From: an uncultured Rhodospirillaceae bacterium
GTDB taxonomy: Bacteria > Pseudomonadota > Alphaproteobacteria > MPNO01 > UBA830
Assembly: GCA_963977005.1 (NCBI GenBank)
Contig: CAXBMQ010000012.1
Span: 4,307 to 68,306, forward strand
Length of the DNA: 64,000 nt
Reading direction: 5' to 3'
Of the stretch, positions 4,624 to 61,765 are shown piece by piece. A program made the translations under genes and the position numbers. The stretch's first letter is position 1. Each line of letters opens with the position of its first letter. The notes below the pieces were generated by a model, which was not told where the DNA came from, did not search any database, and was given only the letters and a program-made list of their open reading frames with translations.

Positions 4624-4650
4624 GGGCGAACCAATGGTTCGCCCTTTTTG
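4624..4650 (+). terminator. Perfect GC-rich hairpin plus T-run 24 nt upstream of the MATE gene start; possible intrinsic terminator or attenuator
   Basis: gggcgaaccaatggttcgccc followed by tttttg. It lies in a 267-bp non-coding leader. Confidence 0.4.
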
Positions 4651-4673
4651 ATTCTGGAAATGGAAATTCCGAT

Positions 4674-6110: not shown

Positions 6111-6111
6111 G

Positions 6112-9257: not shown

Positions 9258-9301
9258 GAGCGGAAATCCGCGCTCACCTTAAGTCATGACGGCGAATCAG
9301 G

Positions 9302-9328
9302 AAAAGGGCGTGTCGCTCTTCTTCGCCC
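9302..9328 (-). terminator. Rho-independent terminator downstream of the M16 peptidase pair
   Basis: On the minus strand: GGGCGAAGAAGAGCGACACGCCC hairpin followed by TTTTCC. Confidence 0.45.
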
Positions 9329-9383
9329 TTCTTCGCCGCGTTCTGTGGATAAATCGCCTCAAATTTCCGGCAACAGCCGAAAA

Positions 9384-45917: not shown

Positions 45918-46703
45918 GTGTATACCGTCGTGGACGGAAGTTTAACATTCGACGTCCTCGTTTTATCGGGCAAATCCCAGTGGACCAGCATTTCCCGCTG
46001 GCCCGACGCGATATCTGCCCAGAACGAAGCCCGCAAGCTGGTCGCGAGCAAGAAGCACCTCGGCGTGAAGGTATCGCAGGAAAGCTACGATCATGCCGAA
46101 AACCGCTTTATGGAAAAGACGCTTTTCAAGCATCTGAAGAGCGACAAAAAGGCGACGCAACCGGCGGCGGAAGCGGCGCCGGCGTTTTCGGCCGACAGTT
46201 TCGGTGAAACCGACGATTACGACGAATTCGACGAATTCGACGACTTCGCCGATTACGACGACGGTCCGGACTGGGTAGCGCCCATCTTCGGCATTTTTGC
46301 AGCTCTCGTACTCATAGTGGGTCTTGGAATTTTCTTTTTTGAAGAAACAGCGGAGGTCGGTTCCTGGGCAAAATCAGAGTTCAAATCGGAGGGCAAGTCC
46401 GACTACTTCGTATTCCCGCTACCCGCAGCCATAACCAACGTCTCGAATGGCGATGAGAACGTCTCGGTCAGGATCGATCTACAGCTCGAACTTGACGGCG
46501 CACACGACGTCAAAGCGGTAGAGTTCGCGCTCGCCCAGATTATGGAATCGGTGATCATTGAAATTCAGGAGACCGATGCCGGTGACCTTCAGCGGAGCGA
46601 GAAAATTCAGTTGCTGCGCGCCAAACTCAAACAAAAAATACAGGACGCCATGGGGGAAACGAACCTCAATGGCGTCCTGTTTAACAATATTCAGGTATTC
46701 TAG
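45918..46703 (+). CDS. FliL-like membrane protein with an atypical long N-terminal cytoplasmic region and acidic linker
   Basis: Single TM (WVAPIFGIFAALVLIVGLGIFFF). The C-terminal 110 aa match the FliL periplasmic domain pattern (YFVFPLPAAITNVS..VSVRIDLQLEL.., ending NNIQVF). Preceded by a D/E/F/Y-rich run. Confidence 0.5.
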   Translation: MYTVVDGSLTFDVLVLSGKSQWTSISRWPDAISAQNEARKLVASKKHLGVKVSQESYDHAENRFMEKTLFKHLKSDKKATQPAAEAAPAFSADSFGETDDYDEFDEFDDFADYDDGPDWVAPIFGIFAALVLIVGLGIFFFEETAEVGSWAKSEFKSEGKSDYFVFPLPAAITNVSNGDENVSVRIDLQLELDGAHDVKAVEFALAQIMESVIIEIQETDAGDLQRSEKIQLLRAKLKQKIQDAMGETNLNGVLFNNIQVF

Positions 46704-46718
46704 CGCGGGTTGCTACCT

Positions 46719-47720
46719 CTACTTCGCGGGAAACTTCACGGCCGGGTTCAGATAGGCATTGCTGTATGCCCCCTTGATGTCGAACGGTTTTTCCAGCTTG
46801 AAATAGGTCTCGACCATTTTGTAGTCGCTGGTCATCCGCGTGTCGTCGAAGTGACCGAGAGCAACTGTGCGCGACGTTGCGTCGTTCATCAGCTCGGTGA
46901 CGAGATTCCAGTTTTTCATTGAAGAGGCCGTTTTCAGACCCGAATTCGCCGCGACCAAGGCGTCGATGCACGGCACCGGCGTTCTGACGCAATCGGCATA
47001 GGCCTGTTGCGTGATCTTAACGAATTTGCCAACCGTTTCTCCGTTTTCGGCCAGGTACTTACCGTTGGCGACGATCGAGTTGCCGTAAGGATTAATGCCG
47101 TGATCGCGCCACGGCAGGAAGCCCATATCGTCACCCAGCACATTCTCGAAGATAAAGTGAATATTGTAGAACGACGTCGTGATATCGATGTTCTTCGACT
47201 TAAGCGCCGCGATCTTGGCGTTCGGCGCAACGTTTACCCAGCGAACGGATTTCGGATCGACGCCGGTCGCCGCCGCAAGAGCCGGCCACATCTTGCGGGC
47301 CGCATCCCACGCCGGGTTGCCGATCTTCTTGCCGGCAAAATCCTTGACGCTCCTGATCCCGGAGCTTTTCAGCCAGTACATCCCGTAGGGCGAGTTGGCG
47401 TAAATATTCATCACACCAACGAGGTCGGCGCCCTTGCCCTTGGTCACAAGCGCGGTGCCCAGATCGGCAATGCCAAGCTGGTTTTTACCGATACCGACAC
47501 GCTGGGACGACAGGGTAGAACCCTTGCCCTGTTCGATCGTCAGATCGATACCGGCCTTCTCGTACAAGCCCCGTGCCTTGGCCCAGTAGACGGGTGCGTG
47601 ATCGCCACCGGCGACCCAGTTCAGGATGAAATTGATTTTTTCCGCACTCTGAGCCGGAACGGCAGAAAATGTGACAGTCGCCGCGGCAACGGTTGCGAGC
47701 AATTTTGTTCTGATCATGTT
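46719..47720 (-). CDS. ABC transporter substrate-binding protein, NMT1/THI5 (SsuA/TauA/ThiY-like) family
   Basis: Signal peptide from Met at 47720 (MIRTKLLATVAAATVTFSAVPAQSA), then a periplasmic binding-protein fold. The ORF track extends to 47837. Confidence 0.8.
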   Translation of the reverse strand, partial: NMIRTKLLATVAAATVTFSAVPAQSAEKINFILNWVAGGDHAPVYWAKARGLYEKAGIDLTIEQGKGSTLSSQRVGIGKNQLGIADLGTALVTKGKGADLVGVMNIYANSPYGMYWLKSSGIRSVKDFAGKKIGNPAWDAARKMWPALAAATGVDPKSVRWVNVAPNAKIAALKSKNIDITTSFYNIHFIFENVLGDDMGFLPWRDHGINPYGNSIVANGKYLAENGETVGKFVKITQQAYADCVRTPVPCIDALVAANSGLKTASSMKNWNLVTELMNDATSRTVALGHFDDTRMTSDYKMVETYFKLEKPFDIKGAYSNAYLNPAVKFPAK

Positions 47721-47840
47721 CGTTCTCCCCTTTTCGATTGAATTTGACTTTGTATGTCCGGCTTTCGGAGTGCAGCGCCAAAGGGTTACCCTGGCCATCC
47801 CTCTTGTGCAGCCATGCCTCTTGCCGTCCTGCCGCACCTC

Positions 47841-47894
47841 GCGTAAGTAACTATACGGTTATTTCAGGCTAGGACCCGGCATCCGGCCTGTCAA
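47841..47894 (+). promoter_or_regulatory. Conserved 54-bp promoter/operator block, copy 1, containing the palindrome TAACT-N4-GGTTA
   Basis: gcgtaagtaactatacggttatttcaggctaggacccggcatccggcctgtcaa. About 87% identical to copy 2 at 50561. Lies in the divergent region between the binding-protein and permease genes. Confidence 0.6.
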
Positions 47895-47947
47895 TAAATG
47901 TTCTCGCAGCGCAAGCGCGCGATGCCGGGAAACCCGATGGGGATTGG

Positions 47948-48709
47948 ATGACGGTATTGAATTTCGTCCGGCGATACTGGATTGCGGTGGCAGCACATAT
48001 CGCAGTCATCGCGGCATGGCAGCTATTCGTCCAGCTCGGCGAAGTGGAATCCTATATAATGCCGTCGCCGCTTGCGACGATCATGACGCTCGGCGACGAC
48101 AACGCATGGGTGCACAACACCCTGTTCACAGCGGGGGAAATCTTCGGCGGGTATTTCTGCGCGGTCGTATTCGGCGTCGGCATGGCGCTTCTGTTCTCAT
48201 GGTCGAAACTTCTGGACGCCGCCTTCATGCCGCTGCTGATCAGCCTGAACATGATTCCCAAAGTGGCGCTTGGCCCGATTTTCATTGTCTGGTTCTCTTA
48301 CGGCATGGGCTCGAACATTTTGATGGCGTTTGCCATCAGCTTCCTGCCGATCCTGATTACGACGGCGCGGGGCCTGAAGGAAGTCGAACCCGATCTCATT
48401 GACCTGGTACGCACCCTCAGGGCATCGCGCTGGCAGGTTTTCACCAAGATCCAGCTACCCGGTTCCCTGCCGTTTATATTTTCCGGCATGAAGGTCGCGG
48501 TTGTCCTGGCCGTCGCGGGCGCGATTGTCGGAGAGTTCATCGCATCGGAAGAAGGTCTTGGTTACCTGATGATGCAGCGTCAGGTCGAGCTCGATACAGC
48601 GTCGATGTTCATGGCTGTTTTGCTGATCACGCTGATCGGGTCGGTTCTGTACGGGCTTGTCATTCTGCTGGAGAAAATAATGGTGCCACAGGACGCGCGG
48701 CTCGGATGA
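47948..48709 (+). CDS. ABC transporter permease (SsuC/TauC-like)
   Basis: 253 aa, 6 TM, EAA-like loop (RTLRASRWQVFTKIQLP). Confidence 0.85.
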   Translation: MTVLNFVRRYWIAVAAHIAVIAAWQLFVQLGEVESYIMPSPLATIMTLGDDNAWVHNTLFTAGEIFGGYFCAVVFGVGMALLFSWSKLLDAAFMPLLISLNMIPKVALGPIFIVWFSYGMGSNILMAFAISFLPILITTARGLKEVEPDLIDLVRTLRASRWQVFTKIQLPGSLPFIFSGMKVAVVLAVAGAIVGEFIASEEGLGYLMMQRQVELDTASMFMAVLLITLIGSVLYGLVILLEKIMVPQDARLG

Positions 48710-48710
48710 G

Positions 48711-49487
48711 GTGCCACCAATGACTGATCCGTTTATCCGCCTGTCCGGCGTCCGCAAGGAATTCGAGACTCGGGGGGAAACATTCCTCGCCGTCTCCGAC
48801 GTAACGTTCGACGTCGCCGAAGGCGAACTTGTTGCGCTCGTCGGGCCGTCCGGCTGCGGTAAAACCACGGTACTGAAAATGATTGCAGGACTGCACGATC
48901 ATTCCGGTGGCGACATGCAGATCGGCGGGACGGACGGCGCGGGTTTCAGCGCCGACAAGGATATCGGCATGGTGTTTCAGCAACCCCTGCTGCTGAAATG
49001 GCGCAAAGTGCTGGAGAACGTGCTGCTGCCGGCAGAGATTCTCGGCCTGCCCATGGCCGAAGCGCGGGACCGGGCCAAAGACCTGCTCGCGCTGGTCGGA
49101 CTCACCGGGTTCGAGGGCAGCTATCCGTACGAACTGTCCGGCGGGATGCAGCAGCGCGCCGCCATCGCAAGGTCGCTGGTGCACGATCCGAAAGTCGTGC
49201 TGATGGACGAACCCTTCGGTGCGCTTGATGCGCTAACCCGCGAAAGCATGAATATCGAATTGCTGCGCATCTGGTCGGAAAGCAAAAAAACGATCCTGTT
49301 CGTCACCCACGGCATTCAGGAAGCCGTGTTCCTGGGCAGCCGCGTGATCGTGCTGACGTCCAGCCCCGCCCGCATGGCGGGGGATATCCCGGTGGATCTG
49401 CCCTACCCGCGCAAGCTTGAGATCAAGACAAACGAAGATTTCGGCGTTTACACGCGCCAGATATACGGTCTGCTGGGAATGGCCTGA
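48711..49487 (+). CDS. ABC transporter ATP-binding protein (SsuB/TauB-like)
   Basis: Walker A GPSGCGKTT, signature LSGGMQQR, Walker B VLMDEPFGALD. Confidence 0.9.
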   Translation: MPPMTDPFIRLSGVRKEFETRGETFLAVSDVTFDVAEGELVALVGPSGCGKTTVLKMIAGLHDHSGGDMQIGGTDGAGFSADKDIGMVFQQPLLLKWRKVLENVLLPAEILGLPMAEARDRAKDLLALVGLTGFEGSYPYELSGGMQQRAAIARSLVHDPKVVLMDEPFGALDALTRESMNIELLRIWSESKKTILFVTHGIQEAVFLGSRVIVLTSSPARMAGDIPVDLPYPRKLEIKTNEDFGVYTRQIYGLLGMA

Positions 49488-49503
49488 CGGCCAACTGCCG
49501 CGG

Positions 49504-50535
49504 CTACGCGACGACGGCGCTTTCCCGCCCGAGATACAGATCCCGCCCGGCATTGAGCACGCCGATCTTGCGGTCTGCGATATAGCGTTTGTGGTTCCAC
49601 AGCCCGCAATCGGGATGAATGTAGGTAACCCGGCCCTCGCCCATGATGCTCTCGGCGCGTTCGATCAGCCGCGCGATATCGTCCGGCGATTCGGTCATCG
49701 TGCGTTTGACGTCGACGACACCGAGCCCCATGCCGATTTCAGGACGGAGTTCCTTGAACGCGACAAGTTCTTCCGCGGGGCGATGCGCGCATTCCATGAC
49801 GATATGATCGACATGCAGCGCGTTCAGATAATCCATCAGACGCCCCCAGGAGCCGTCCTGCGGCTGCTGACCGGCATAGTTGCCAAAGCACAGATGTACC
49901 GCGGGAATTCCCGGCACGGCGTCCAGCACCTTGTTCATCGCCGCCGCCGCCCATTCCCATTCCTCGGGATTGCCCGGCAGGTTGGCTTCATCGATCTGCA
50001 CTATATCGGCATCGAGCCGCGCGACCTGTTCGGCAAGCACATCGGCGATTGCGTCGGTCACGGCCTCAATACTGCCGTAATGATGATCCACCAGCGTTTT
50101 CGCCAGCATGTGCGGACCCGTCAGCGCAAACTTGAACGGCTTCTGCGCCAGCGCCTTCGCGCGGCGACAGGGAAACGCGAGATTCATTGTACCGCTGCTG
50201 ATCGCGCCTTCGACGACGCCGGCAGGCAGCCGCCGCCACCCCATGTTCATGTCGGATTCGAACTGGCGGATCAGATCGAAGGTCAGCGCTGAGCGGATCC
50301 CTTCCATCGGCGACGTAAAGTATTCGATCATGCCATTGGTTTCGGGATGGCTGAGATCGTAGCGATACACCTCGCCGTCGCAGACCACGTCGAGCCCTGC
50401 GGTCTCCTGCGTGTGCAGGATCACGCGCGTTGCGTCGGTAATGTCCTGTTCGGACGGGCTGTTGCCGAGCCAGGCGGGCACCGGGTAGGAGCCGACAGTC
50501 GTGGTCTTGATGCGGGGAGCTGTATCCATGATCAT
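49504..50535 (-). CDS. Cobalamin-independent methionine synthase (MetE) C-terminal-domain-like protein (core-MetE/UroD-like family)
   Basis: 343 aa. N terminus KTTTVGSYPVPAWL. Zn-ligand-like His/Cys/Glu (HIVMECAHR; YIHPDCGLW). Confidence 0.7.
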   Translation of the reverse strand: MIMDTAPRIKTTTVGSYPVPAWLGNSPSEQDITDATRVILHTQETAGLDVVCDGEVYRYDLSHPETNGMIEYFTSPMEGIRSALTFDLIRQFESDMNMGWRRLPAGVVEGAISSGTMNLAFPCRRAKALAQKPFKFALTGPHMLAKTLVDHHYGSIEAVTDAIADVLAEQVARLDADIVQIDEANLPGNPEEWEWAAAAMNKVLDAVPGIPAVHLCFGNYAGQQPQDGSWGRLMDYLNALHVDHIVMECAHRPAEELVAFKELRPEIGMGLGVVDVKRTMTESPDDIARLIERAESIMGEGRVTYIHPDCGLWNHKRYIADRKIGVLNAGRDLYLGRESAVVA

Positions 50536-50560
50536 AATCCTTGCCGAAACGTCGGTGGCG

Positions 50561-50614
50561 GCGTAAGTAACTAAACAGTTATTTCAGGCTAGGGGCCGGG
50601 CAATCGCCTGTCAA
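50561..50614 (+). promoter_or_regulatory. Conserved 54-bp promoter/operator block, copy 2, with the perfect palindrome TAACT-N4-AGTTA
   Basis: gcgtaagtaactaaacagttatttcaggctaggggccgggcaatcgcctgtcaa. Lies in the divergent region between the MetE-like and tetR genes. Confidence 0.6.
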
Positions 50615-50659
50615 CCGAAAGCCGACCTCACCTCGGCGCGACCAGGAGAAGCGCGGACG

Positions 50660-51325
50660 ATGCCTGCAAAGATCGACAGCAAGGCCGCTCGGCAAGCCGG
50701 CAAAGAACGCGTCCGCCGCGACCCCGACGCGTCGCAGCGGCGCATTCTGGCCGCGGCAACCGAGGTCTTCGCAGCCCAGGGGCTTGACGGCGCGCGGGTC
50801 GATGAAATTGCTGACCGCGCCGGTATCAACAAGCGGATGCTCTATCACTATTTCGGAAACAAGGACGAGCTGTTCGGCGCCGTATTAAACGAGCTCTATG
50901 AGACGATCTGCCGTGACAGCGCCGCGCTCGATCTGAATGCGGGTCCACCACCTGAGGGACTCGCCCGGCTGGTCGATTTTGTCGTCGATTACTATCTCGG
51001 CAATCCTCACGCAATCACGCTGCTGAACGCCGAGAACTTGCATAAGGCGCGTCACCTGAAGACGTCGGAACGCATTCGCGCGATCCATTTGCCATTCGAG
51101 GAAATGCTGGAGGAACTGCTCGCCCGCGGCGTTGCGACGAACGATTTCAGATCGGGCGTCAGTGGTGCGCGGCTATACATCTCCATCGTCGGGCTGACCT
51201 ACTATTACCTGTCGAACGGACATTCACTGTCGGTCTTCTTCGACCGCGATCTTTACGACCGCAAAGAGCTGAAAGCCTGGCGGCAGCATATTCACGAAAT
51301 GGCGCAGCGCTTCGTCGCCGTCTGA
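50660..51325 (+). CDS. TetR/AcrR family transcriptional regulator
   Basis: N-terminal HTH (ILAAATEVFAAQGLDGARVDEIADRAGINKRMLYHYFGNKDELF). Confidence 0.9.
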   Translation: MPAKIDSKAARQAGKERVRRDPDASQRRILAAATEVFAAQGLDGARVDEIADRAGINKRMLYHYFGNKDELFGAVLNELYETICRDSAALDLNAGPPPEGLARLVDFVVDYYLGNPHAITLLNAENLHKARHLKTSERIRAIHLPFEEMLEELLARGVATNDFRSGVSGARLYISIVGLTYYYLSNGHSLSVFFDRDLYDRKELKAWRQHIHEMAQRFVAV

Positions 51326-51344
51326 ACATCAAGGGGAGCAGAAA

Positions 51345-52496
51345 ATGGCCGAACAAAGACTTGGGATCATCATGAACGGCGTCACGGGCCGTATGGGCAC
51401 CAACCAGCATCTGATCCGGTCTGTCCTCGCGATCATGAAGGAGGGCGGGGTAAAGCTGCAAAACGGCGACACCGTCATGCCCGACCCGATCCTGGTGGGC
51501 CGCAACGCGGCGAAAGTCGAAGCGCTGGCCAAAGAACACGGCGTCGAACGCTGGACGACCGACCTGGACGCGGCAATCGCCGACCCCAAGGACACATTGT
51601 TTTTCGACGCGGCCAGCACAAACCTCCGTGCGGGACTCCTCCGCCAGGCCATCGATGCCGGGAAAGACATCTATTGCGAAAAACCGTCCGCCGCGACACT
51701 GGAAGATGCGATCGAGCTCTATCATCGTGCCGAGAAAGCGGGGGTCAAACATGGCGTCGTACAGGACAAGATTTTCCTGCCCGGCCTGCAGAAAATGAAA
51801 AAACTGATGGATGACGGCTTCTTCGGCCGGCTGCTGTCGGTAAAAATCGATTTTGGCTACTGGGTATTCGAAGGCGACTGGAAAAAGGCCCAACGACCGA
51901 GCTGGAATTACCGCAAGGAAGACGGTGGCGGGATCATTCTCGATATGATGCCCCACTGGCGCTACGTGCTCGACAACACGTTTGGCAACGTCAAAAGCGT
52001 CACCTGCATGGGCCGCGTCAATATCGACAAGCGATGGGACGAAAACGACGAACCCTACGATGCGGACGCAGACGATGCCTCATACGCCCTGGTCGAATTG
52101 GAGGGCGGCGCCGTGGTCAATATCTTCGCCTCCTGGTGCACCCGCGTGCGCAAGGACGACCTGGTCACATTCCACGCCGACGGCACACACGGTGCTGCCG
52201 TGGCCGGTCTGACCAAATGCCATATCCAGGACCGCCCGGGCACACCGTCGCCGGTCTGGAACCCGGACGAACCGCAAACGACGGATTTCTTCACGACGTG
52301 GACCGAATACGGCGCCGATATGGAATTCGACAACGGCTTCAAGGCGGAATGGGAAATGTTTATCCGCCACCTGCACGAAGACGCACCGTTCCACTGGAAC
52401 CTGCGCGAAGGCGCCAAGGGACTTCAGCTTGCCGAAGCCGCCATGCAGAGCTGGCAGGAACGCCGCTGGATCGATATCGAAGAGATCGCGGAGTAA
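51345..52496 (+). CDS. Gfo/Idh/MocA family oxidoreductase
   Basis: N-terminal Rossmann domain (LGIIMNGVTGRMG) and the C-terminal alpha/beta domain of the family. 383 aa. Confidence 0.85.
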   Translation: MAEQRLGIIMNGVTGRMGTNQHLIRSVLAIMKEGGVKLQNGDTVMPDPILVGRNAAKVEALAKEHGVERWTTDLDAAIADPKDTLFFDAASTNLRAGLLRQAIDAGKDIYCEKPSAATLEDAIELYHRAEKAGVKHGVVQDKIFLPGLQKMKKLMDDGFFGRLLSVKIDFGYWVFEGDWKKAQRPSWNYRKEDGGGIILDMMPHWRYVLDNTFGNVKSVTCMGRVNIDKRWDENDEPYDADADDASYALVELEGGAVVNIFASWCTRVRKDDLVTFHADGTHGAAVAGLTKCHIQDRPGTPSPVWNPDEPQTTDFFTTWTEYGADMEFDNGFKAEWEMFIRHLHEDAPFHWNLREGAKGLQLAEAAMQSWQERRWIDIEEIAE

Positions 52497-52501
52497 ACCC
52501 G

Positions 52502-53668
52502 ATGGTATCGATCACACTCCCGCGCGCTGATGGCGGGCTGGAACAATACGAAACCGGCACGCCGCGCAATTTCCCCGAGACTGCGGACCGCCCGTTCAAC
52601 AGAATCGCCTATGCCGCAGCCCATGTCGTTCCCAACGCGGCGGCCGACAACGACCCCTGGATCGATACCGACGTCGACTGGGACCGCACCATCGCCTTTC
52701 GAACGCATCTGTGGAAACTGGGGCTCGGCGTTGCCGAAGCGATGGACACGGCCCAGCGCGGGATGGGAATGGACTGGCCGACATCGCTCGAACTGATACG
52801 CCGCAGCGTGGATGCCTCGAAAGACGTGCCGGGCGCGGTGGTCGCATCGGGGGCGGGCACCGATCACCTCGCTCCATCGCCTGACCTGTCGATCGGCGAT
52901 GTGATCGCTGCATACGAAGAACAATGCGAAGCGGTCGAGGCCTGTGGCGGCCGGATTATCCTGATGGCAAGCCGCGCGCTCGCCGCCTGCGCCAGATCGC
53001 CTGACGATTACGGCAAGGTCTACGACCGTATACTGGGAAATGTGAAGGAACCGGTGATTGTTCACTGGCTTGGGGAAATGTTCGACCCTGCGCTCGAGGG
53101 GTACTGGGGCCATGCGGATCATCACGTGGCGATGGATATCTGCCTCGACGTGCTGAAACGGAACGCCGACAAGGTCGACGGCATCAAGATTTCGCTGCTC
53201 GACAAGGACAAGGAGATCCGGCTACGTCGCGGCTTGCCCGACGGTGTGCGCATGTTTACCGGCGACGATTTCAATTACGCCGAGTTGATCGCGGGCGACG
53301 ACGAAGGGTATTCCGATGCCCTGCTGGGGATTTTCGATGCCATCGCCCCTGCCGCGTCGGCAGCGCTGGCCGCCCTGGCCGGAAACCGGCCGGATGAATT
53401 CCACGATATCTTCGCGCCGACGGTGCCCTTGTCTCGTCATATCTTCAGGGCGCCGACCCGGTTCTACAAAACCGGTGTGGTCTTCATGGCCTATCTGAAC
53501 GGTCACCAGGACCATTTCACGATGATCGGCGGCCAGCAAAGCACACGATCGATCGTGCATCTTGGCGAGATATTCCGCTTGGCGGACAAGGCCGGTTTGT
53601 TGAAGAGCCCCGATGAGGCCGCTGCCCGGATGAGCCGGGTGATGGCCGTCCACGGCATAGGGGTCTGA
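52502..53668 (+). CDS. DUF993 family protein (dihydrodipicolinate-synthase-like TIM-barrel superfamily)
   Basis: 388 aa from the ATG at 52502, which lies 5 nt after the upstream stop. The ORF-track start at 52034 is in another frame that overlaps the oxidoreductase gene. Conserved Gfo/Idh/MocA-DUF993-isomerase gene order. Confidence 0.55.
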   Translation: MVSITLPRADGGLEQYETGTPRNFPETADRPFNRIAYAAAHVVPNAAADNDPWIDTDVDWDRTIAFRTHLWKLGLGVAEAMDTAQRGMGMDWPTSLELIRRSVDASKDVPGAVVASGAGTDHLAPSPDLSIGDVIAAYEEQCEAVEACGGRIILMASRALAACARSPDDYGKVYDRILGNVKEPVIVHWLGEMFDPALEGYWGHADHHVAMDICLDVLKRNADKVDGIKISLLDKDKEIRLRRGLPDGVRMFTGDDFNYAELIAGDDEGYSDALLGIFDAIAPAASAALAALAGNRPDEFHDIFAPTVPLSRHIFRAPTRFYKTGVVFMAYLNGHQDHFTMIGGQQSTRSIVHLGEIFRLADKAGLLKSPDEAAARMSRVMAVHGIGV

Positions 53669-53671
53669 CCG

Positions 53672-54499
53672 ATGACAGCACCGGATCTTGAAAAGCTCGC
53701 CATCAACCAGGCGACCACGATGAAGCAGTGGACGCTGCGCGAAGCCATCGAAGGGTATGCGGCAAAGGATATCCGCGGGATTTCGGTCTGGCGCGACAAG
53801 CTTGCCGAATGCGGGGTCGATGAAGCGGCGCGCATTCTGAAAGACAACGGCATGACCGTCACCGGCGTCTGCCGCGGCGGCATGTTTCCCGCCATTGACG
53901 ATGCCGGACGGCAGGCGGCGCTGGACGACAACCGCCGCGCCGTCGACGAAGCCGCCGCCATTGAGGCACAATGTCTTGTGATGGTATGCGGCGGCCTGCC
54001 GGACGGGTCGAAAGACATGATCGATGCCCGGAAACAGGTCGCCGACGGCCTGGCGGCGATGCTGCCCCATGCCATCGATGCCGGCGTGCCGGTCGCGATC
54101 GAGCCACTGCACCCGATGACGGCCGCCGACCGCGCCTGCGTCAACACGCTGGAACATGCGCTTGATCTGTGCGATGCGCTGGGTGACGGCATCGGTGTTG
54201 CCGTGGATTGCTATCACGTGTGGTGGGACCCGAAGCTCGAGGACCAGATCGCCCGCGCTGGCAGCCGCATCCTCGGATTTCACGTCTGCGACTGGCTGGT
54301 GCCGACTGTCGATCTGGTCTGGGATCGCGGCATGATGGGCGATGGCGTGATCGACATTCCGCGTATTCGTGGCTGGGTCGAAAATGCGGGGTATCGCGGC
54401 TTCAACGAAGTTGAGATATTCTCCGAACGGAACTGGTGGAAACGCGACCCGGTCGAGGTCGTCGACACCTGCATGGAACGGTATCAACACTTCGTATGA
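53672..54499 (+). CDS. Sugar phosphate isomerase/epimerase (xylose-isomerase-like TIM barrel)
   Basis: 275 aa AP-endonuclease-2/TIM-barrel family. Metal-ligand pattern (E..D..H..E). Confidence 0.8.
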   Translation: MTAPDLEKLAINQATTMKQWTLREAIEGYAAKDIRGISVWRDKLAECGVDEAARILKDNGMTVTGVCRGGMFPAIDDAGRQAALDDNRRAVDEAAAIEAQCLVMVCGGLPDGSKDMIDARKQVADGLAAMLPHAIDAGVPVAIEPLHPMTAADRACVNTLEHALDLCDALGDGIGVAVDCYHVWWDPKLEDQIARAGSRILGFHVCDWLVPTVDLVWDRGMMGDGVIDIPRIRGWVENAGYRGFNEVEIFSERNWWKRDPVEVVDTCMERYQHFV

Positions 54500-54510
54500 G
54501 GGAATGAATA

Positions 54511-55632
54511 ATGGCGAGCGCAGAGGGTCTTAAAGAGGTCGGATATTTTGATTGTGCCGGCGGCGGACAAATCCGCGTCGACGGAACAACGGCCTATATC
54601 GGTCACATGGCCAACCCTTTCGGTACGAGCATCGTCGATGTCGCCGATCCGAAAAATCCCAAGCTCCTCTCCCATATCGAGATGCCGGAAGGCACGCATT
54701 CGCACAAGGTGCATGCACAGGGCGACCTGATGGTGCGCAATCATGAGCTTATCGGCCCCGGCAAGCCCGATGATTTTCACACAGGTGTCGGCATCTACGA
54801 TGTTTCGGACAAGACAAATCCGAAACTGGTATCGACCTGGGATACCGTTGGCCGCGGCGTCCATCGTTTCGATTTCGACGGCCGCTACATGTATTTCTCG
54901 TCCACGGTCGAAGGTTATCGCGGCCCAATCATGGTCGTGCTCGACCTGAAGGACCCCGAAAACCCGGTCGAAGTATGCAAATGGTGGATTCCCGGACAAT
55001 GGGAAGCCGGCGGCGAGGAATATCCCTGGGGCGACGGGCCCGAGCCGCGCTGCCATCATCCGCTGCGCCTGGGCAACCGGCTGTATATGAGCTACTGGCA
55101 TCACGGGCTGTTCATCCTCGATATCGAGGATCTGTCGAACCCGAAGATGATCTCGTCTTTCAACACGGGACCGACATTCCCGCACCCGACCCACACGGCA
55201 CTGCCGATTCCGTTCGAAATCGGCGGCCACAGGCACATGATCGTCGCCGACGAAGACGTCGCCAAGCTGCGCCCGCATGCACCGGCCTTCATGTGGATCT
55301 TCGACATCACGGACGAGACCAATCCGATCCCGATTTCGTCCTGGCAGGTTAACGGTCTCGATCTTATCGGCGAGCCCGAGGGGATGTTCACCGGGTGTCA
55401 TCAGCCGAGCGAGATCGTCACCGGCACCGTGATCCCGTTTGCCTGGTTCGCCCGCGGCATCCGGCTGATCGACATCGCCAATCCGCACGCACCGGTCGAA
55501 GTCGGACATTTCGAACCCGACCCGCAGCCCGGTTGCGACCGCATCTGCGCGAACGACATCACCGTTGACGACCGCGGCCTGATCTACGTCATAGACCGGC
55601 TTCGCGGTTTTCATATCGTCGAAAAGGTCTGA
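54511..55632 (+). CDS. LVIVD-repeat beta-propeller protein
   Basis: Six repeats of hydrophobic-x-hydrophobic-D-hydrophobic-x-D...NP (IVDVADPKNP, IYDVSDKTNP, VVLDLKDPENP, ILDIEDLSNP, IFDITDETNP, LIDIANPHAP). Confidence 0.7.
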   Translation: MASAEGLKEVGYFDCAGGGQIRVDGTTAYIGHMANPFGTSIVDVADPKNPKLLSHIEMPEGTHSHKVHAQGDLMVRNHELIGPGKPDDFHTGVGIYDVSDKTNPKLVSTWDTVGRGVHRFDFDGRYMYFSSTVEGYRGPIMVVLDLKDPENPVEVCKWWIPGQWEAGGEEYPWGDGPEPRCHHPLRLGNRLYMSYWHHGLFILDIEDLSNPKMISSFNTGPTFPHPTHTALPIPFEIGGHRHMIVADEDVAKLRPHAPAFMWIFDITDETNPIPISSWQVNGLDLIGEPEGMFTGCHQPSEIVTGTVIPFAWFARGIRLIDIANPHAPVEVGHFEPDPQPGCDRICANDITVDDRGLIYVIDRLRGFHIVEKV

Positions 55633-55829
55633 ACAAGGACGGGTTCGGGCGCAAGCCGGTAGATCGCCGACTGCGCTCCACCGGTGACGACCACGAAATC
55701 GGCATGCTGAATGCTCGTGCGACAGGCTGTCGCCCGTCTCGTCGCGTATATCAGCCATGCGGATTGCCGATGTTCGGACATCGTGCTGGAATGCTACGCT
55801 ATTGATCGGATTTTGGAGTTAAAGGGGAT

Positions 55830-56993
55830 TTGACCATGGCGACGTCGACCGATGACACGATGAAACGCGGCGCAAACCGTGAAGCACTGCTCGATGCGGT
55901 GTACGACAAGCTCGATTCGCTCGACATGGCGCCCTATTGGGCGGTGAACCCCAATGAAAGCCAGAATGACGAGGACGGCCAGGTTCTGAAAGGCAAGAAG
56001 GCCGAGCCGTTCATGTGGAAATACGCGGACATCGAACCGCTGCTATACGAAGCGGCCGAACTGGTCACGATGGAAGATTCCGAACGCCGCTCGATCGTGC
56101 TGGTCAACCCGGGACTGGCGCCGGTCCGGGCGACCGTCTCGACGCTCTATACGGCTTACCGCCTGAACGATCCGCGCGAAATCATGCCGCCACACAGCCA
56201 TTCGATCAACGCGGTGCGTATCGGCCTGACCGGCGACCAGAACTTCACCGGCGTCGAGGGCGAAGCCATCACTTTCGGGCCGGGCGACGTTGTGCTGACA
56301 CCGGCCGGCGCATGGCATAACCATGGCAATCACGGCGACGATTACGCCGTCAATGTCAGCATTCTCGACCTGCCCCTGACCGAGGTGCTGAACGCCGCGT
56401 CGTTCGAACACGACTACAAGGAAGAGGTCGACGGCCAGATGGTCTCGCGCCGCGAACAAACGGCACGATACTCCGACGATCATTCGCATAAAACATATGG
56501 ATTTGGCGGGTTACGGCCACGGTTTCTCGATCATCGCCGCGGCACCGGCGTACATTCGCCGATGTATGTCTATCGCTGGAACCGAACCCGCGAACTGCTT
56601 GAGAGCTTCCGCGATCACGAGGGCAGCCCGTGGGATGCCATCCAGGTCGAATACACCGATCCGATCAACGGGCGGACGGCCTATCCAACGATGACGTTCT
56701 TCGGCGAGATGCTCCGTCCGGGCGAGCGGACGCTGCCGCAACAGCAGAATGCGAGCCAGGTCGTAATTCCCTTCCACGGTAACGGACACAGCATTGTCGG
56801 CGGAAAACGCTTCGACTGGTCGCCGTTCGATGCGATCGCGATCCCGGGCGGTGAATGGTACGAGCATGCCAACGGCTCGGACAGCGGGGAAGCCACACTG
56901 TTCGCCGCGAGTGACGAGCCGGTTTTGAAAGCCCTTGGGTTCTACAAACGCCACGGCAAGACCGAAAGCGGCGAGATCGTTCAACTCGACTAG
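55830..56993 (+). CDS. Bicupin protein (gentisate 1,2-dioxygenase-like cupin family)
   Basis: Two cupin modules. The first has a 3-His motif (PPHSHSINAV..WHNHGNHGDD). 387 aa. Confidence 0.65.
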   Translation: MTMATSTDDTMKRGANREALLDAVYDKLDSLDMAPYWAVNPNESQNDEDGQVLKGKKAEPFMWKYADIEPLLYEAAELVTMEDSERRSIVLVNPGLAPVRATVSTLYTAYRLNDPREIMPPHSHSINAVRIGLTGDQNFTGVEGEAITFGPGDVVLTPAGAWHNHGNHGDDYAVNVSILDLPLTEVLNAASFEHDYKEEVDGQMVSRREQTARYSDDHSHKTYGFGGLRPRFLDHRRGTGVHSPMYVYRWNRTRELLESFRDHEGSPWDAIQVEYTDPINGRTAYPTMTFFGEMLRPGERTLPQQQNASQVVIPFHGNGHSIVGGKRFDWSPFDAIAIPGGEWYEHANGSDSGEATLFAASDEPVLKALGFYKRHGKTESGEIVQLD

Positions 56994-57090: not shown

Positions 57091-57684
57091 TCAGCCTGCT
57101 TTTGGACGATTGATGCCGGCCGTCAACGGCTCGGGAATGTCGATGTCTTCGTCGTCTGGGCGCACCGTTGACAGCGGGTTTTCAAAATCGTCCTGCAGCG
57201 GATCGTCAGGTGTTTCCGGGTCTGACTGCGGCGGGTAGCCGCCATCCTGCGGCAGCGAATCATTCGTCCCGGTTCCGGCATCGGCCGAATCCGCAGTATC
57301 GACTTCTCGCGGATATGTGCCGGAGGCGGAATCTGCCGGCATCACGGGCTGCTGCTGAGGCGGCGGCGTGCCTGCATTTCCGGCTGGTTCGAATTCGGCG
57401 ACCTTGGGTTCGGAGTCGCGCCACGTCGTCGTGCGCGCGACATACAGATCGTAATCGGCCTGTAACCGGAGCCACAGTTCCGCCGTTGTCCCGAAATACT
57501 TTGCAAACCGCAGCGCTGTATCGGGTGTGACCCCCCGCTTGCCGGCAACGATATCGCTGATCCGACCGACAGGCACATCGATATCCCGGGCCAGCTTGTT
57601 CCGGCTGACGCCAAGCGGTGTCATCACCTGGTCGAACAGGATTTTTCCAGGGTGTTTGGGTGTTGAATCAGTCATCAATGGCAA
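57091..57684 (-). CDS. HigA-family (XRE HTH) antitoxin-like protein with a long disordered acidic/proline-rich C-terminal tail
   Basis: The N-terminal 90 aa match the HigA addiction-module antidote HTH (KHPGKILFDQVMTPLGVSRNKLARDIDVPVGRISDIV). The C-terminal 100 aa are low complexity. No RelE/HigB partner is adjacent. Confidence 0.65.
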   Translation of the reverse strand: MPLMTDSTPKHPGKILFDQVMTPLGVSRNKLARDIDVPVGRISDIVAGKRGVTPDTALRFAKYFGTTAELWLRLQADYDLYVARTTTWRDSEPKVAEFEPAGNAGTPPPQQQPVMPADSASGTYPREVDTADSADAGTGTNDSLPQDGGYPPQSDPETPDDPLQDDFENPLSTVRPDDEDIDIPEPLTAGINRPKAG

Positions 57685-57806: not shown

Positions 57807-58202
57807 TTACGCCGCCTTGCGGAATGGCCACACACCCTTGCGGCTGCCGTCGGGTGCACAGAGACCCAAGTCTGCACGGAGATCCACGGCAAGGCGCGAC
57901 TCGATCGAACTCAGGAAGAACCGGATCGATTCTTCACGTTTAATGTTTTCATGGCGCTGCGCTTCGAACAGGTCTGCCATATCGGCCAGTACCTGTTTGT
58001 AGGCATCGACGAGCAACGCGCCTTTGCGCTCGCGTTCGACAAACATTTCGCGCATTTCGCGGAATTCGTGGCGCATTTCCTGCAGTGCCGTCTCGACAGA
58101 GGACAGCCGGTCCGTCACCGGGTCACCGTCCGGCGTTCGTAAGGTCCCCGGAAGTTTGCTTTCGACCAATTCGCGCGGATCGAACCGTTTTGCTGCAGCC
58201 AT
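57807..58202 (-). CDS. Hypothetical coiled-coil protein (131 aa, start MAAAKRF)
   Basis: ORF with consistent codon usage. No known motifs. Confidence 0.35.
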   Translation of the reverse strand: MAAAKRFDPRELVESKLPGTLRTPDGDPVTDRLSSVETALQEMRHEFREMREMFVERERKGALLVDAYKQVLADMADLFEAQRHENIKREESIRFFLSSIESRLAVDLRADLGLCAPDGSRKGVWPFRKAA

Positions 58203-58452
58203 TTCACTATCACCCGATCTGGTTTTCGTCTCCGCGATCGGTACCCCCCGACCCGGCTTCAGGCCAATCATTTACCAATAGTAGTAAACGAGGCGTAAAC
58301 GCCGGGAAAATTTTGCGCAGCCGGATTCGTCGCGATGCGATGCCTGACCGGCGACATAGCGCATCGCCCGCTTCGCGCTTAACTCAAACTTAATCTTAAT
58401 TCGAGACGCTCCCGTTCTGATTATTTGTTTCAGCCCAACGGGGGGAAATGCG

Positions 58453-59514
58453 TTGCGCGGCAATTGGCACGGCAAAACTGTTATGATCACCGGCGTGTGC
58501 GGCACGGTAGGCGGCGAACTGCTTCGGCAGATTTCGGCGCTCTCGCCGGCCGAGATCGTCGGTATCGATAACAACGAAAGCGATCTCTTCTTCCTGCGCG
58601 AAGAATATGCAGCGCATCACTCGGTGCAGCTTTATATCGGCGACATTCGGGACCGGGAGACCCTCACCGAAAAAATGCGTGGCATCGATATCGTCCTTCA
58701 CGCCGCCGCCCTCAAACACGTTTTCCTGTGCGAGCAATCGCCCCGGGATGCCGTACAGACCAACATACACGGCACGCAGAACGTGATCGACGCTGCCATC
58801 GCCAATGGCGTCAAACGCGTCCTGTTCACCTCATCGGACAAGGCCGTCAACCCGACCAACGTCATGGGCACGTCCAAGCTGATGGCCGAGCGGCTCATGT
58901 CGGCGGCAAACGCCGAGCGCCGCTCCGACGGCCCGATCTTTGCCTCCACCCGGTTCGGTAACGTGCTTGGATCGCGCGGATCGGTGATCCCGCTGTTCGA
59001 GCGCCAGATCAAGGCCGGCGGGCCGATTACGATTACGGACGACCAGATGTCGCGCTTCATCATGACACTTGAAGAAGCCGTGCGCCTGGTTATCGGGTCG
59101 ACCTTCCTCGCGCGCGGCGGAGAAGTGTTCGTCACCAAAATGCCGGTGCTCCGTATTGCCGACCTTGCCTGGTCGATGGTCCAGGACCTGGCGCCGGTCC
59201 ACGGCTTCAAAGCGGACGACATTGCCATAGACATCGTCGGCAGCCGCCCGGGGGAGAAACTCTACGAGGAGCTGCTGAATGACGAAGAAACACGTCGGAC
59301 GGTAGAGACCGACGAGTATTTCATCATCCTGCCGGCGCTGAAGCCACACTACGAAATCGTGCAATACGCCTATGTCGGCATGCGCGACAGCAAGGTGGAC
59401 GAGCCCTACAACTCCGCGCTCGCCCCGACGATGACCCGCGAGGAGGTTCGCGACTACCTCCGGCGCAACGAACTTATCCGTGTCGTGAAAGAGGACGAAC
59501 TGCAATGCGCATAA
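58453..59514 (+). CDS. Polysaccharide biosynthesis protein, UDP-GlcNAc 4,6-dehydratase-like (PseB/FlaA1/CapD family SDR)
   Basis: Rossmann motif TGVCGTVGGEL, catalytic TSSDKAV...YGTSK. TTG start at 58453 or ATG at 58483 (MITGVCG). Confidence 0.8.
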   Translation: MRGNWHGKTVMITGVCGTVGGELLRQISALSPAEIVGIDNNESDLFFLREEYAAHHSVQLYIGDIRDRETLTEKMRGIDIVLHAAALKHVFLCEQSPRDAVQTNIHGTQNVIDAAIANGVKRVLFTSSDKAVNPTNVMGTSKLMAERLMSAANAERRSDGPIFASTRFGNVLGSRGSVIPLFERQIKAGGPITITDDQMSRFIMTLEEAVRLVIGSTFLARGGEVFVTKMPVLRIADLAWSMVQDLAPVHGFKADDIAIDIVGSRPGEKLYEELLNDEETRRTVETDEYFIILPALKPHYEIVQYAYVGMRDSKVDEPYNSALAPTMTREEVRDYLRRNELIRVVKEDELQCA

Positions 59515-60659
59515 TCATACTTGGCGGCGACGGCTATCTCGGCTGGCCTACATCGATGGATATGGCCGCCGACGGCCATGAGGTCTGGGCGGTCGACAAC
59601 TACATGCGTCGCAATATCGCTCAGGAAACACAGTCCGAGGCTCTGCTCCCGACGCCGAATCTGCACGAACGCGCCGAGATTTTCGAAGCCGCAACCGGCA
59701 AGAAAATCAATATCGTTATCGGCGACTGCACCGATTTCCGGATGATGTCCGATCTGTTCGAGAAAGTGCAGCCCGAAGCGGTGATCCACTACGCCGAACA
59801 GCCCTCCGCCCCGTATTCGATGATGGGATACGACCAGGCACGGCGCACGCTGGACAATAACCTGCAGGCCACCTTCAACACGGTATGGGCCGTACTGGAG
59901 CATGCGCCGGACTGCCACATCATCAAGCTCGGCACGATGGGCGAATACGGCACCCCGAATATCGATATCGAGGAAGGCTGGATCGACATCGAACACAAGG
60001 GCCGCAAGGACAAGTTCCTGTATCCCCGCGCCGCCGGCTCGCTCTATCACACCACCAAGGTGCTCGATACCGACCTGCTGTGGTTCTACGTCCGCACCTA
60101 CGGCGTGCGCGCGACCGACCTGATGCAGGGACCGGTATACGGCCTGCACACCGACCAGACGGCCATCGATGAACGTCTGATGCCGAATTTCCACTATGAC
60201 GACATTTTCGGCACCGTCCTGAACCGGTTCCTCGTCCAGGCCGTCGCCGGCGTACCGTTGACAGTCTACGGCAAGGGCGGTCAGACCCGCGGTTACCTGA
60301 ACCTCAAAGATACGCTGCAATGCGTCGAGCTGGCCATGAACAGCCCGGTCGATCAGGGCGACCTGCGTATCCTGAACCAGTTCACCGAACAGTTCTCGGT
60401 CAACGAGCTTGCGGAAAAGGTCACCCGCGTGGGCAACGCCAACGGACTGAACGTCGAGATGAAGAACATCGACAATCCGCGCAAGGAACGCGAGGAACAT
60501 TACTACAACCCAGCCCATTCGGGTCTTACCGACCTGGGCCTCAAACCCCATCACCTGACCGACGACGTCGTCGTCGACATGCTGGAAACGGTAAAACGCT
60601 ACAGCAACCGTATCGACACGCGCAAAGTAATGCCCCGCGTCAGCTGGAAGGCCGCCTGA
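59505..60659 (+). CDS. sqdB: UDP-sulfoquinovose synthase (SQD1/SqdB/Agl3 ortholog)
   Basis: Near-identical blocks to plant SQD1: GGDGYLGW (SQD1 GGDGYCGW), LGTMGEYGTPNIDIEEGWI, ATDLMQGPVYG, VYGKGGQTRGYLNLKDTLQCVELA, FNQFTEQFSVNELA, HYYNPAH, VSWK. The start overlaps the PseB-like gene stop. Confidence 0.9.
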   Translation: MRIIILGGDGYLGWPTSMDMAADGHEVWAVDNYMRRNIAQETQSEALLPTPNLHERAEIFEAATGKKINIVIGDCTDFRMMSDLFEKVQPEAVIHYAEQPSAPYSMMGYDQARRTLDNNLQATFNTVWAVLEHAPDCHIIKLGTMGEYGTPNIDIEEGWIDIEHKGRKDKFLYPRAAGSLYHTTKVLDTDLLWFYVRTYGVRATDLMQGPVYGLHTDQTAIDERLMPNFHYDDIFGTVLNRFLVQAVAGVPLTVYGKGGQTRGYLNLKDTLQCVELAMNSPVDQGDLRILNQFTEQFSVNELAEKVTRVGNANGLNVEMKNIDNPRKEREEHYYNPAHSGLTDLGLKPHHLTDDVVVDMLETVKRYSNRIDTRKVMPRVSWKAA

Positions 60660-61672: not shown

Positions 61673-61765
61673 CGACCGGCGTTCCCCCGATACGGGCCTT
61701 AAGGCTCCTGCCGGCGGGCGCGCGCGCCTTGCGCGACGTGAACGCCTAGTCGGAGACCCGGTCGA

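Follow-up and report, generated by a model that had tools for sequence, protein, structure and literature searches.

The stretch of DNA analyzed here (the window) is 64,000 nucleotides of contig CAXBMQ010000012.1, from an uncultured Rhodospirillaceae bacterium. Positions 46,719 to 56,993 encode a TetR-family regulator, an ATP-binding cassette (ABC) importer, a stand-alone MetE-like protein, and several enzymes from poorly understood families. An earlier note, made from the sequence alone, had described this cluster as a TetR-linked uptake and catabolic unit with an unusual mix of enzymes. We called genes from a listing of open reading frames (ORFs) and assigned domains with Pfam and with the equivalog cut-offs of NCBIfam, and all ten genes that the note named were found, with the domains it had given them, at or near where it had placed them. 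The unusual mix results from the fusion, in one lineage, of two modules that are conserved and uncharacterized, under one TetR operator. We infer that a single TetR-repressed regulon joins two independently conserved catabolic modules, and we give this picture as a whole, mechanism included, a probability of about one half. The gene content, the operator and regulon, the division into modules, and the retained active-site residues come straight from the sequence analysis, while the classes of substrate and all of the reaction steps are inferred. The genes and the two operator blocks are:

46719-47717, minus strand: NMT1/THI5-like periplasmic solute-binding protein of a NitT/TauT-type ABC importer, 332 amino acids (Pfam NMT1, E = 4e-44)
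47841-47897: operator/promoter block 1, predicted from sequence, in the intergenic region that separates the divergent genes for the binding protein and the permease, with the palindrome TAACTATACGGTTA at 47848-47861
47948-48709, plus strand: ABC permease (Pfam BPD_transp_1, E = 1e-29)
48711-49487, plus strand: ABC ATPase (Pfam ABC_tran; 255 amino acids as called in L001, described below)
49504-50535, minus strand: stand-alone core-MetE-like zinc/thiol alkyltransferase with a Meth_synt_2 domain only (Pfam, 81 bits versus a cut-off of 21)
50560-50617: operator/promoter block 2, predicted from sequence, in the intergenic region that separates the divergent MetE-like gene from TetR, with the perfect palindrome TAACTAAACAGTTA at 50568-50581
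50660-51325, plus strand: TetR-family repressor, first gene of the operon (Pfam TetR_N, E = 5e-18; TetR_C_29, E = 4e-37)
51345-52496, plus strand: Gfo/Idh/MocA NAD(P)-dependent dehydrogenase, hereafter Gfo (Pfam; orthologue structure 3oqb, E = 2e-174)
52502-53668, plus strand: DUF993 protein, with a divergent dihydrodipicolinate synthase (DHDPS)/N-acetylneuraminate lyase (NAL), or class I aldolase-like, fold (Pfam, E = 5e-183)
53672-54499, plus strand: xylose-isomerase-like triosephosphate isomerase (TIM) barrel of the AP_endonuc_2 family (Pfam; PDB 3ju2/3qc0, which is SMc04130, E = 1e-104)
54511-55632, plus strand: LVIVD beta-propeller, cytoplasmic, seven-bladed (predicted structure)
55830/55836-56993, plus strand: bicupin similar to gentisate and salicylate 1,2-dioxygenases, with a probable start at ATG 55836 (PDB 3bu7, E = 4e-50)

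An identical locus is present on a 256-kb TARA Oceans scaffold (L001), so the DNA comes from a marine alphaproteobacterium. Among the matches listed, the closest genome is a metagenome-assembled genome of an uncultured Rhodospirillaceae (L003). These genes are grouped beyond chance: about ten marine contigs from relatives (L003 and L091-L099) have them in the same order, and two of the promoter regions share an operator block.

A shared operator and its regulon

The two divergent intergenic regions have a block of about 41 nucleotides in common (37/41 identical), and this block contains the palindrome TAACT-N4-AGTTA. Across the 64-kb window, the palindrome occurs at these two sites only, with 0.13 occurrences expected from shuffled sequence. 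A longer operator pattern of 27 nucleotides is also limited to these sites (47847-47873 and 50567-50593), with none expected in the shuffles. Block 2 is kept in all of the marine relatives. A scan for promoters and terminators was uninformative: the counts were equal to or lower than those in shuffled sequence.

Similar palindromes are found in other genera. We examined 80 loci with DUF993; in 16 of them, not counting this one, the 150 bp ahead of Gfo contain TAACY-N4-RGTTA, while just 0.3 such loci would be expected. Most occurrences of the palindrome in these loci (52/60) sit just upstream of genes that belong with DUF993. The targets include Gfo (17), TctC (9), TetR (6), the ABC permease (5), a second TIM barrel (5), an enolase-like protein (4), and a second DHDPS-like protein (4). 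The palindrome also precedes the MetE-like gene in three loci (this one, as represented by L001, and L065 and L077). The regulator itself has the N-terminal helix-turn-helix (HTH) and the ligand-binding C-terminal domain of the TetR family, and the palindromic operator is conserved along with it. Because orthologues in other genera have this palindrome ahead of them as well, we assign the importer and the MetE-like gene to one TetR regulon with the TetR operon, via this predicted operator. This bears out the idea of a TetR-linked uptake and catabolic unit that lies outside the textbook pathways. The earlier note had also held that its proposal would fail if these genes were not co-regulated; judging from the sequence, the common operator ties the importer and the MetE-like gene to the TetR operon.

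The genes from TetR through LVIVD are separated by just 3-19 bp (11 bp between the TIM barrel and LVIVD), which indicates that they form a single operon. The gap before the bicupin is 198-204 bp, and our scan of the window found no copy of the operator ahead of it. The TetR_C_29 repressor would bind TAACY-N4-RGTTA in both divergent promoter regions, and would thereby control three units: the NMT1-type ABC importer, the gene for the core-MetE-like protein, and the operon TetR-Gfo-DUF993-TIM-LVIVD. Catabolic operons under a repressor are, as such, commonplace.

Two modules and their distributions

We searched one genome per GTDB species for DUF993 and found at least 597 loci, which are spread across the Proteobacteria. 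In the 82 loci whose neighbors we examined, DUF993 is accompanied by Gfo (77 loci), the TIM barrel (71 loci), TetR (56 loci, at 37-53% identity), and, in 30-46 loci, NitT/TauT-type ABC genes. We refer to the TetR regulator, the NitT/TauT-type ABC importer or a tripartite tricarboxylate transporter (TTT), and Gfo-DUF993-TIM as module A. Orthologues of the binding protein (52-72% identity) are found in the DUF993 loci L004, L034, L045, and L079. Other loci serve the same enzyme core with carboxylate transporters of the TTT, tripartite ATP-independent periplasmic (TRAP), or major facilitator superfamily (MFS) types. The MetE-like gene is near DUF993 in 8 of these loci (about 10%), from several α- and β-proteobacterial lineages, and it is in the regulon of module A in three lineages.

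Module A has other recurring partners outside the window. These include a second AP_endonuc_2 barrel, which resembles IolO, psicose epimerase, Hyi, and OtnI; TctABC transporters; a second DHDPS-like protein; and an enolase of the muconate lactonizing enzyme (MLE) type. Some loci also contain a gene similar to L-threonate dehydrogenase or tartronate semialdehyde reductase, or a PhyH oxygenase, an SDR protein, and a GNAT protein. Directly upstream of Gfo in 46 DUF993 loci is a divergent protein of about 470 amino acids (for instance, L057 9004-10431). It has only a sub-threshold match to Pfam MR_MLE_C (E = 2e-4) and has no match in NCBIfam and no sequence match in PDB; it does have KxK and metal-ligand-like motifs, so to judge by its sequence it is probably an unrecognized branch of the enolase superfamily. 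In a plasmid of Erwinia, the locus comprises glycerate kinase, TetR, Gfo, TIM, an MFS transporter, and DUF993. We rejected glycerate kinase as a general partner of module A, as it is found in plasmid loci only and in none of 80 genome loci. We found no additional accessory genes of module A elsewhere in the window, nor the rest of the second module, which we describe below.

A second subfamily of DUF993 (54-58% identity), also paired with a TIM barrel, is found on plasmids of Paracoccus (L172), Sagittula (L173), and S. meliloti (pSymA, L175). The context of these genes is reminiscent of beta-oxidation: two aldo/keto reductases, a CoA-transferase, enoyl-CoA hydratase, glycerate kinase, acyl-CoA dehydrogenase, a ketoreductase, and the alpha and beta subunits of electron transfer flavoprotein, with no Gfo gene. 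Also, a plasmid of Streptomyces sp. NBC_00557 (L174) encodes a DUF993 homolog (7998-9185, 42% identity) immediately upstream of a type I polyketide synthase. From this context, the DUF993 family may also work in biosynthesis.

Module B consists of the gentisate-dioxygenase-like bicupin and the LVIVD propeller. A scan of metagenomes for the LVIVD family yielded 80 loci, and we counted neighbors over 81. The bicupin and LVIVD genes are directly adjacent in 63/81 loci, which is essentially every LVIVD locus with enough flanking sequence, and those bicupins are 53-63% identical to the one in the window. RidA follows them in 43 of the 81 loci and a glutathione S-transferase (GST) in 38. Module B is also often found with a 3-hydroxyacyl-CoA-dehydrogenase-like gene, GntR, GMC oxidoreductases, and TRAP, TTT, or NMT1-ABC transporters, and it is seen in Inquilinus as well. 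One widespread version (L087, L103, L109, L114, L140, L146, L153, and others) contains GntR, one or two GMC oxidoreductases, bicupin, LVIVD, RidA, and GST; the 3-hydroxyacyl-CoA-dehydrogenase-like gene; TRAP or NMT1-ABC transporters; and often an ABC system of the Bmp family. This cluster is apparently undescribed.

The two modules are joined only in the window's marine lineage. Among the LVIVD loci, genes of the DUF993 module appear only in L091-L099. Conversely, among the 82 DUF993 loci, LVIVD and bicupin are next to DUF993 only in this locus, its duplicate, and L003; once L001-L003 and two duplicates are set aside, none of the remaining 77 has either gene. In the marine lineage, LVIVD and then the bicupin are attached 11 bp behind the TIM gene. 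Checking the conservation of the gene neighborhood, as the earlier note had proposed, thus shows that each module recurs separately. The gene set that it described is real, and it is not one coherent mix: LVIVD and the bicupin are an independent pair that usually comes with RidA and GST.

Related contigs suggest how the site changes. In L089 and L090 (Ga0233450_10000120 and Ga0181555_1000048), the MetE-like, LVIVD, and bicupin proteins are 95-96% identical to those in the window. At 9540-10010 of these contigs there is a clean, in-frame-looking deletion that starts near codon 48 of Gfo and ends near codon 185 of TIM. What is left is the start of Gfo (~48 codons) fused to the end of TIM (~90 codons), and DUF993 is gone. 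These contigs also lack the ABC importer genes, while the MetE-like gene, TetR, the operator, LVIVD, and the bicupin are retained. In L083 (ctg8103, 4635-10122), which has the DAO-DUF924 flank in common with the window, we found a TRAP transporter (DctPQM), a lactonase of the SGL family, and LVIVD (79% identity), with no bicupin and no DUF993 module. Because of the deletion in L089/L090 and the contents of L083, this site appears to be a hotspot that exchanges catabolic modules, and LVIVD and the bicupin appear to be independent of Gfo-DUF993-TIM.

The enzymes and their candidate reactions

Structural genomics structures cover all three core proteins of module A: 3oqb for Gfo, 4dnh (SMc04132) for DUF993, and 3ju2/3qc0 (SMc04130) for the TIM barrel. 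A full-text literature search for DUF993/PF06187, SMc04130-35, 3OQB, 4DNH, 3JU2, 3QC0, and 7VPF turned up no functional account. DUF993 has the TIM-barrel fold of the DHDPS/NAL type, and its fold neighbors are YagE, L-2-keto-3-deoxyarabonate (L-KDA) dehydratase, KdgD, 2-keto-3-deoxygluconate (KDG) aldolase, and NAL, as well as the deaminase for pyrroline-hydroxy-carboxylate (Pyr4H2C). K229 is invariant and lies on the sixth predicted strand, and an invariant GDD follows the seventh strand. As for the importer, the best solved relatives of the binding protein are 4nmy, THI5, and ThiY, and the permease scores below the cut-offs for SaoP, NtrB, SsuC, and TauC.

The closest known systems for module A are non-phosphorylative sugar-acid pathways. 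The L-arabinose route of Azospirillum also combines a Gfo-family dehydrogenase (AraA) with an enzyme of the DHDPS/NAL fold (AraD, the DHDPS-family L-KDA dehydratase). The catabolism of glucarate and galactarate uses an enolase-superfamily dehydratase, KdgD or GarL, GarR, and GarK; similarly, module A is found elsewhere with enolase-superfamily, HIBADH-like, and glycerate kinase genes and with carboxylate transporters. However, DUF993 is only about 12% identical to the DHDPS-fold enzymes of these pathways and lacks their Pfam signature, and both the invariant AP_endonuc_2 partner and the TetR_C_29 regulator are foreign to them.

Taken together, the transporters, the fold relatives, and the accessory genes favor a polyhydroxy (sugar-acid-like) carboxylic acid as the substrate of module A. 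By analogy, carboxylates are the most likely substrates of the locus. The imported compound would be a polyhydroxylated carboxylic acid, either sugar-acid-like or hydroaromatic. Gfo would oxidize one of its hydroxyl groups, and the TIM-barrel enzyme would isomerize, epimerize, or dehydrate the keto intermediate. DUF993 would then cleave or dehydrate the resulting 2-keto acid to give pyruvate and a small aldehyde, via a Schiff base to a lysine (we propose K229).

The bicupin of module B appears to have an intact active site. Its putative iron ligands, in the N-terminal cupin, are H122, H124, and H163; their counterparts in 2phd are H119, H121, and H160, and none of the three varies among 54 homologs. 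R130, H165, and R86 correspond to R127, H162, and R83 of salicylate 1,2-dioxygenase, and the carboxylate-binding arginine and histidine are invariant. In contrast, A85, W104, G106, and Q108 of salicylate dioxygenase are replaced by S88, Y107, A109, and R111, which are invariant; these are the positions that were changed in the deposited specificity mutants of salicylate 1,2-dioxygenase. We rejected two specific assignments. The protein is below the TIGR02272 cut-off for gentisate 1,2-dioxygenase (197 bits versus 442), and it has Ala109 and Arg111, invariant in the subfamily, instead of Gly106 and Gln108. It is also below the cut-off for 5-aminosalicylate 1,2-dioxygenase (MabB; 208 bits versus 650 for NF049978). 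Because the iron and carboxylate ligands are kept, the pocket residues are altered, and both cut-offs are missed, we predict a competent ring-cleaving dioxygenase that represents a new specificity subfamily.

The earlier note had described the LVIVD propeller as six-bladed. Our model has seven blades (about 28 strands; predicted local distance difference test, or pLDDT, of 88.6). The fold is related to that of Sb-PTE, the binuclear-metal phosphotriesterase from Sphingobium sp. TCM1 (PDB 5hrm and 5ioj), of which LVIVD is a seven-bladed homolog; their sequence alignment covers two short stretches only. From this model, LVIVD is probably a metalloenzyme. Unlike Sb-PTE, the protein in the window is cytoplasmic and about 130 residues shorter, and its genomic context points to the catabolism of aromatic acids, not of organophosphates. 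Our literature search found just one account of LVIVD proteins, in the cad cluster for chloranilic acid of Herbaspirillum lusitanum TQ07, where it was annotated by homology (PMC13191619). The cad cluster degrades an aromatic compound or quinone, and it encodes both an LVIVD-repeat protein (cadB1) and a DHDPS-family protein (cadD). We compared these with the window's genes by description; their roles were assigned by homology only, and their partners are different (an FAD monooxygenase and a pyrone-dicarboxylate hydrolase).

Clusters for gentisate or 5-aminosalicylate comprise a class III bicupin dioxygenase, a maleylpyruvate isomerase of the GST type, and a hydrolase of the fumarylacetoacetate hydrolase (FAH) family. 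Module B is similar in the three-histidine iron site and in the arginine and histidine that hold the carboxylate and hydroxyl of the substrate. Also, GST and RidA genes come after the pair in most other loci, as expected for isomerization and deamination of a ring-fission product. The differences are that the bicupin is below both cut-offs with changed pocket residues, that LVIVD takes the position of the FAH-family hydrolase, and that the window lacks GST and RidA. By analogy, LVIVD seems to occupy the position expected of the hydrolase, and a substituted salicylate or gentisate is the favored substrate for module B. The Fe(II) bicupin would open the ring of such an aromatic acid, and the LVIVD metalloenzyme would process the ring-fission product or act at a neighboring step. 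Module B, attached behind the operon of module A, would be co-expressed with it and would not necessarily act on the same molecule.

The MetE-like protein has the Meth_synt_2 domain and the His-Cys-Glu-Cys zinc site of MetE and core-MetE (H214, C216, E248, and C310, invariant in 20 homologs). We rejected it as a recognized methionine synthase: its best score against a methionine synthase equivalog is 138.8 bits, versus a cut-off of 406 (NF003317). Previous work described the core methionine synthases core-MetE and MesA-D (Deobald 2020, PMC7005905; Price 2021, bioRxiv 10.1101/2020.04.21.054031), of which MesD is encoded beside MesX (DUF1852; bioRxiv 10.1101/2020.04.21.054031). Like these, our protein has a single Meth_synt_2 domain with the His-Cys-Glu-Cys site, and our comparison shows that it keeps the motifs that bind homocysteine in MetE. 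Unlike them, it is below all of the equivalog cut-offs, it has no DUF1852 gene within 10 kb and no corrinoid protein nearby, and it lies outside any methionine context, under a catabolic TetR operator. Elsewhere, the neighbors of MetE-like genes include PhyH, 2-oxoglutarate (2OG)-Fe, or TauD-type oxygenases and a cluster of enolase, TIM, Gfo, and Tct genes. The MetE-like protein would probably be an accessory enzyme that demethylates a methylated form of the substrate in a zinc-dependent reaction, with homocysteine or another thiol as the methyl acceptor.

Several observations weigh against this scheme. Module A, the LVIVD family, and this subfamily of MetE-like proteins have no experimentally characterized members, so the substrate classes rest on analogy. 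The spacing of 11 bp implies that LVIVD is co-transcribed with module A, which could mean a single pathway instead of an incidental attachment, and in the unrelated loci L084-86, the MetE-like gene is directly upstream of LVIVD and so bridges the two modules. MLE-type enolases, the PhyH-type oxygenase, and GNAT in some loci with module A would also fit an amino-acid-derived or betaine substrate, and NitT/TauT importers are not limited to carboxylates. Lastly, our structural model of DUF993 is poor (pLDDT 63), which weakens the case for K229 as the Schiff-base lysine, and aligning the DUF993 family to E. coli DapA with hhalign (using an approximate DapA sequence) gave no significant match.

Alternative pathways and substrates

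The strongest alternative, which we consider possible and still clearly less likely than two joined modules, is that the ten genes serve one pathway, each acting in turn on a single imported compound. In one version, the compound is a carboxylate, hydroaromatic or of the cyclitol type, that Gfo, DUF993, and TIM would oxidize, dehydrate, and aromatize to a salicylate- or gentisate-type acid, much as quinate is converted to protocatechuate; the bicupin would cleave the aromatic acid; and LVIVD would hydrolyze the product. Two precedents are consistent with this chemistry: dehydroshikimate dehydratases are found among the AP_endonuc_2 barrels, and the barrel enzyme type I dehydroquinase works through a Schiff base. 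In another version, LVIVD splits a conjugate of an aromatic acid and a sugar acid. In either version, the MetE-like protein demethylates. The tight packing from TetR through LVIVD, the operator system that the operon shares with the importer and the MetE-like gene, and the preservation of the arrangement in about ten marine relatives all fit a single pathway. So do the associations of the MetE-like gene with both module A (8/82 loci) and LVIVD, and a VOC-family gene flanks the Bradyrhizobium loci. On the other hand, the modules were joined by a single evolutionary event in one lineage: DUF993 loci outside of it have neither the bicupin nor LVIVD (0/77), and in the metagenomes only the LVIVD loci L091-L099 carry genes of the DUF993 module. 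Furthermore, L089 and L090 keep the MetE-like gene, TetR, LVIVD, and the bicupin after the deletion of Gfo-DUF993-TIM, and the bicupin is not preceded by the operator.

We consider it improbable that module A degrades a cyclic or N-methylated derivative of an amino acid, such as a compound similar to proline betaine or hydroxyproline betaine. The MetE-like protein would then be a betaine:homocysteine methyltransferase, the enolases would be epimerases, and DUF993 would resemble the pyrroline-hydroxy-carboxylate deaminase, which is indeed among its fold neighbors. Methyl transfer from an onium donor to a zinc thiolate is easy, and some variants of the regulon include enolases of the MLE subgroup, a PhyH-type oxygenase, GNAT, and a second DHDPS-like gene. 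However, the window itself lacks those accessory genes, Gfo and AP_endonuc_2 enzymes play no part in the known routes for hydroxyproline and proline betaine, and betaine importers normally have binding proteins of the OpuAC type.

Slightly less probable still is a 3-keto-glycoside system, for levoglucosan, a C-glycoside, or a 3-keto-glucoside, with Gfo forming the 3-keto sugar and the TIM barrel performing a beta-elimination. The earlier note had pointed to this chemistry from the pairing of Gfo with a TIM-barrel 'isomerase', here the AP_endonuc_2 barrel. Oxidation by Gfo followed by the TIM barrel is a reasonable reading of the core, and Gfo has weak matches to levoglucosan dehydrogenase (PDB 6a3f, E = 1.5e-12), to DgpA (7xr9), and to 1,5-anhydrofructose reductase. 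But its score against the LevoglcsnDh equivalog is 65 bits versus a cut-off of 650, the matches to 6a3f and 7xr9 reach just E = 1e-12 and 1e-7, and inositol dehydrogenase scores equally well, so Gfo is not placed among the orthologues of these enzymes. Also, there is no glycoside-type binding protein or glycosidase, and the invariant DHDPS-fold partner and the carboxylate-type transporters are foreign to such systems.

The least likely substrate, in our view very improbable, is the one that the earlier note raised: an organosulfur compound or sulfo-sugar (sulfoquinovose, a sulfonate, or taurine), or a methylated sugar. MetE-like enzymes do perform thiol chemistry, and the importer, a member of the NitT/TauT superfamily, weakly matches SsuA, TauA, SsuC, and TauC. 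But these scores are far below the cut-offs (43.6 versus 163.5 bits for SsuA_fam, 28.2 versus 304 for TauA, 77 versus 347 for SsuC, and 69 versus 342 for TauC), so the resemblance of the binding protein to SsuA is weak; its solved relatives are of the ThiY/THI5 type, and orthologous enzyme cores use TTT or MFS transporters. Neither desulfonating nor sulfoglycolytic enzymes were found. Specifically, Pfam and NCBIfam identified no SsuD/SsuE, TauD, Xsc, or similar family among the ten proteins or in the flanks, and no SuyAB, sulfoquinovosidase, sulfoquinovose-converting enzyme, sulfolactaldehyde enzyme, or exporter of sulfite or sulfonate was detected in the cluster.

The other clue to a sulfo-sugar was a nearby sqdB. 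This gene (59505-60659), 2.5 kb downstream of the cluster, encodes a full-length protein that resembles UDP-sulfoquinovose synthase (460 bits versus a cut-off of 575). It is biosynthetic and belongs to a separate cluster for surface polysaccharide, beyond a HigA-like gene. The polysaccharide cluster (58453-61700 in the window; 15952-20740 in L001) encodes a UDP-GlcNAc 4,6-dehydratase similar to PseB/FnlA, the SqdB-like protein, an epimerase similar to RmlB/GalE, and an oligosaccharide repeat-unit polymerase, and it could place a sulfo-sugar or an unusual 6-deoxy sugar in the O-antigen or capsule. Two genes on the minus strand separate the polysaccharide cluster from the catabolic one: a 197-amino-acid protein with the HTH of HigA-type antitoxins (57091-57684; 92 bits versus 48), which is about twice the usual length of an antitoxin, and a 154-amino-acid ORF that has no family match (57807-58271). 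On the other side, directly upstream of the catabolic cluster (45918-46703, plus strand), is a gene for a 261-amino-acid protein with a FliL-like C-terminal region and an acidic linker of low complexity. In the part of the window that we examined, no flagellar genes were seen.

To return to the two joined modules, removing the tempting annotation as a sulfo-sugar system leaves a locus that is a tractable entry to DUF993. Besides the operator, it comes with a regulator and an importer, and the structures 3oqb, 4dnh, and 3ju2 cover a triad of enzymes that is found at 597 or more loci. The cluster of bicupin, LVIVD, RidA, and GST suggests an undescribed way to process the ring-fission products of salicylate-type compounds. 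And the catabolic setting of a core-MetE homolog bears on the economy of methyl groups and methionine in the ocean.

A more specific proposal combines these points, and we consider it unlikely, somewhat more so than the single pathway. The core-MetE homolog would be a cofactor-independent catabolic demethylase that passes the methyl group of a substrate to homocysteine or another thiol, within a Proteobacteria-wide TetR regulon for a carboxylate pathway that is based on DUF993; LVIVD would be a new metalloenzyme, obligately partnered with class III ring-cleaving dioxygenases of a new subfamily. A 2025 paper stated that the role of core-MetE homologs in aerobic marine bacteria was open (PMC12478193). 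If this proposal is true, it would answer that question and would give first functions to three uncharacterized families.

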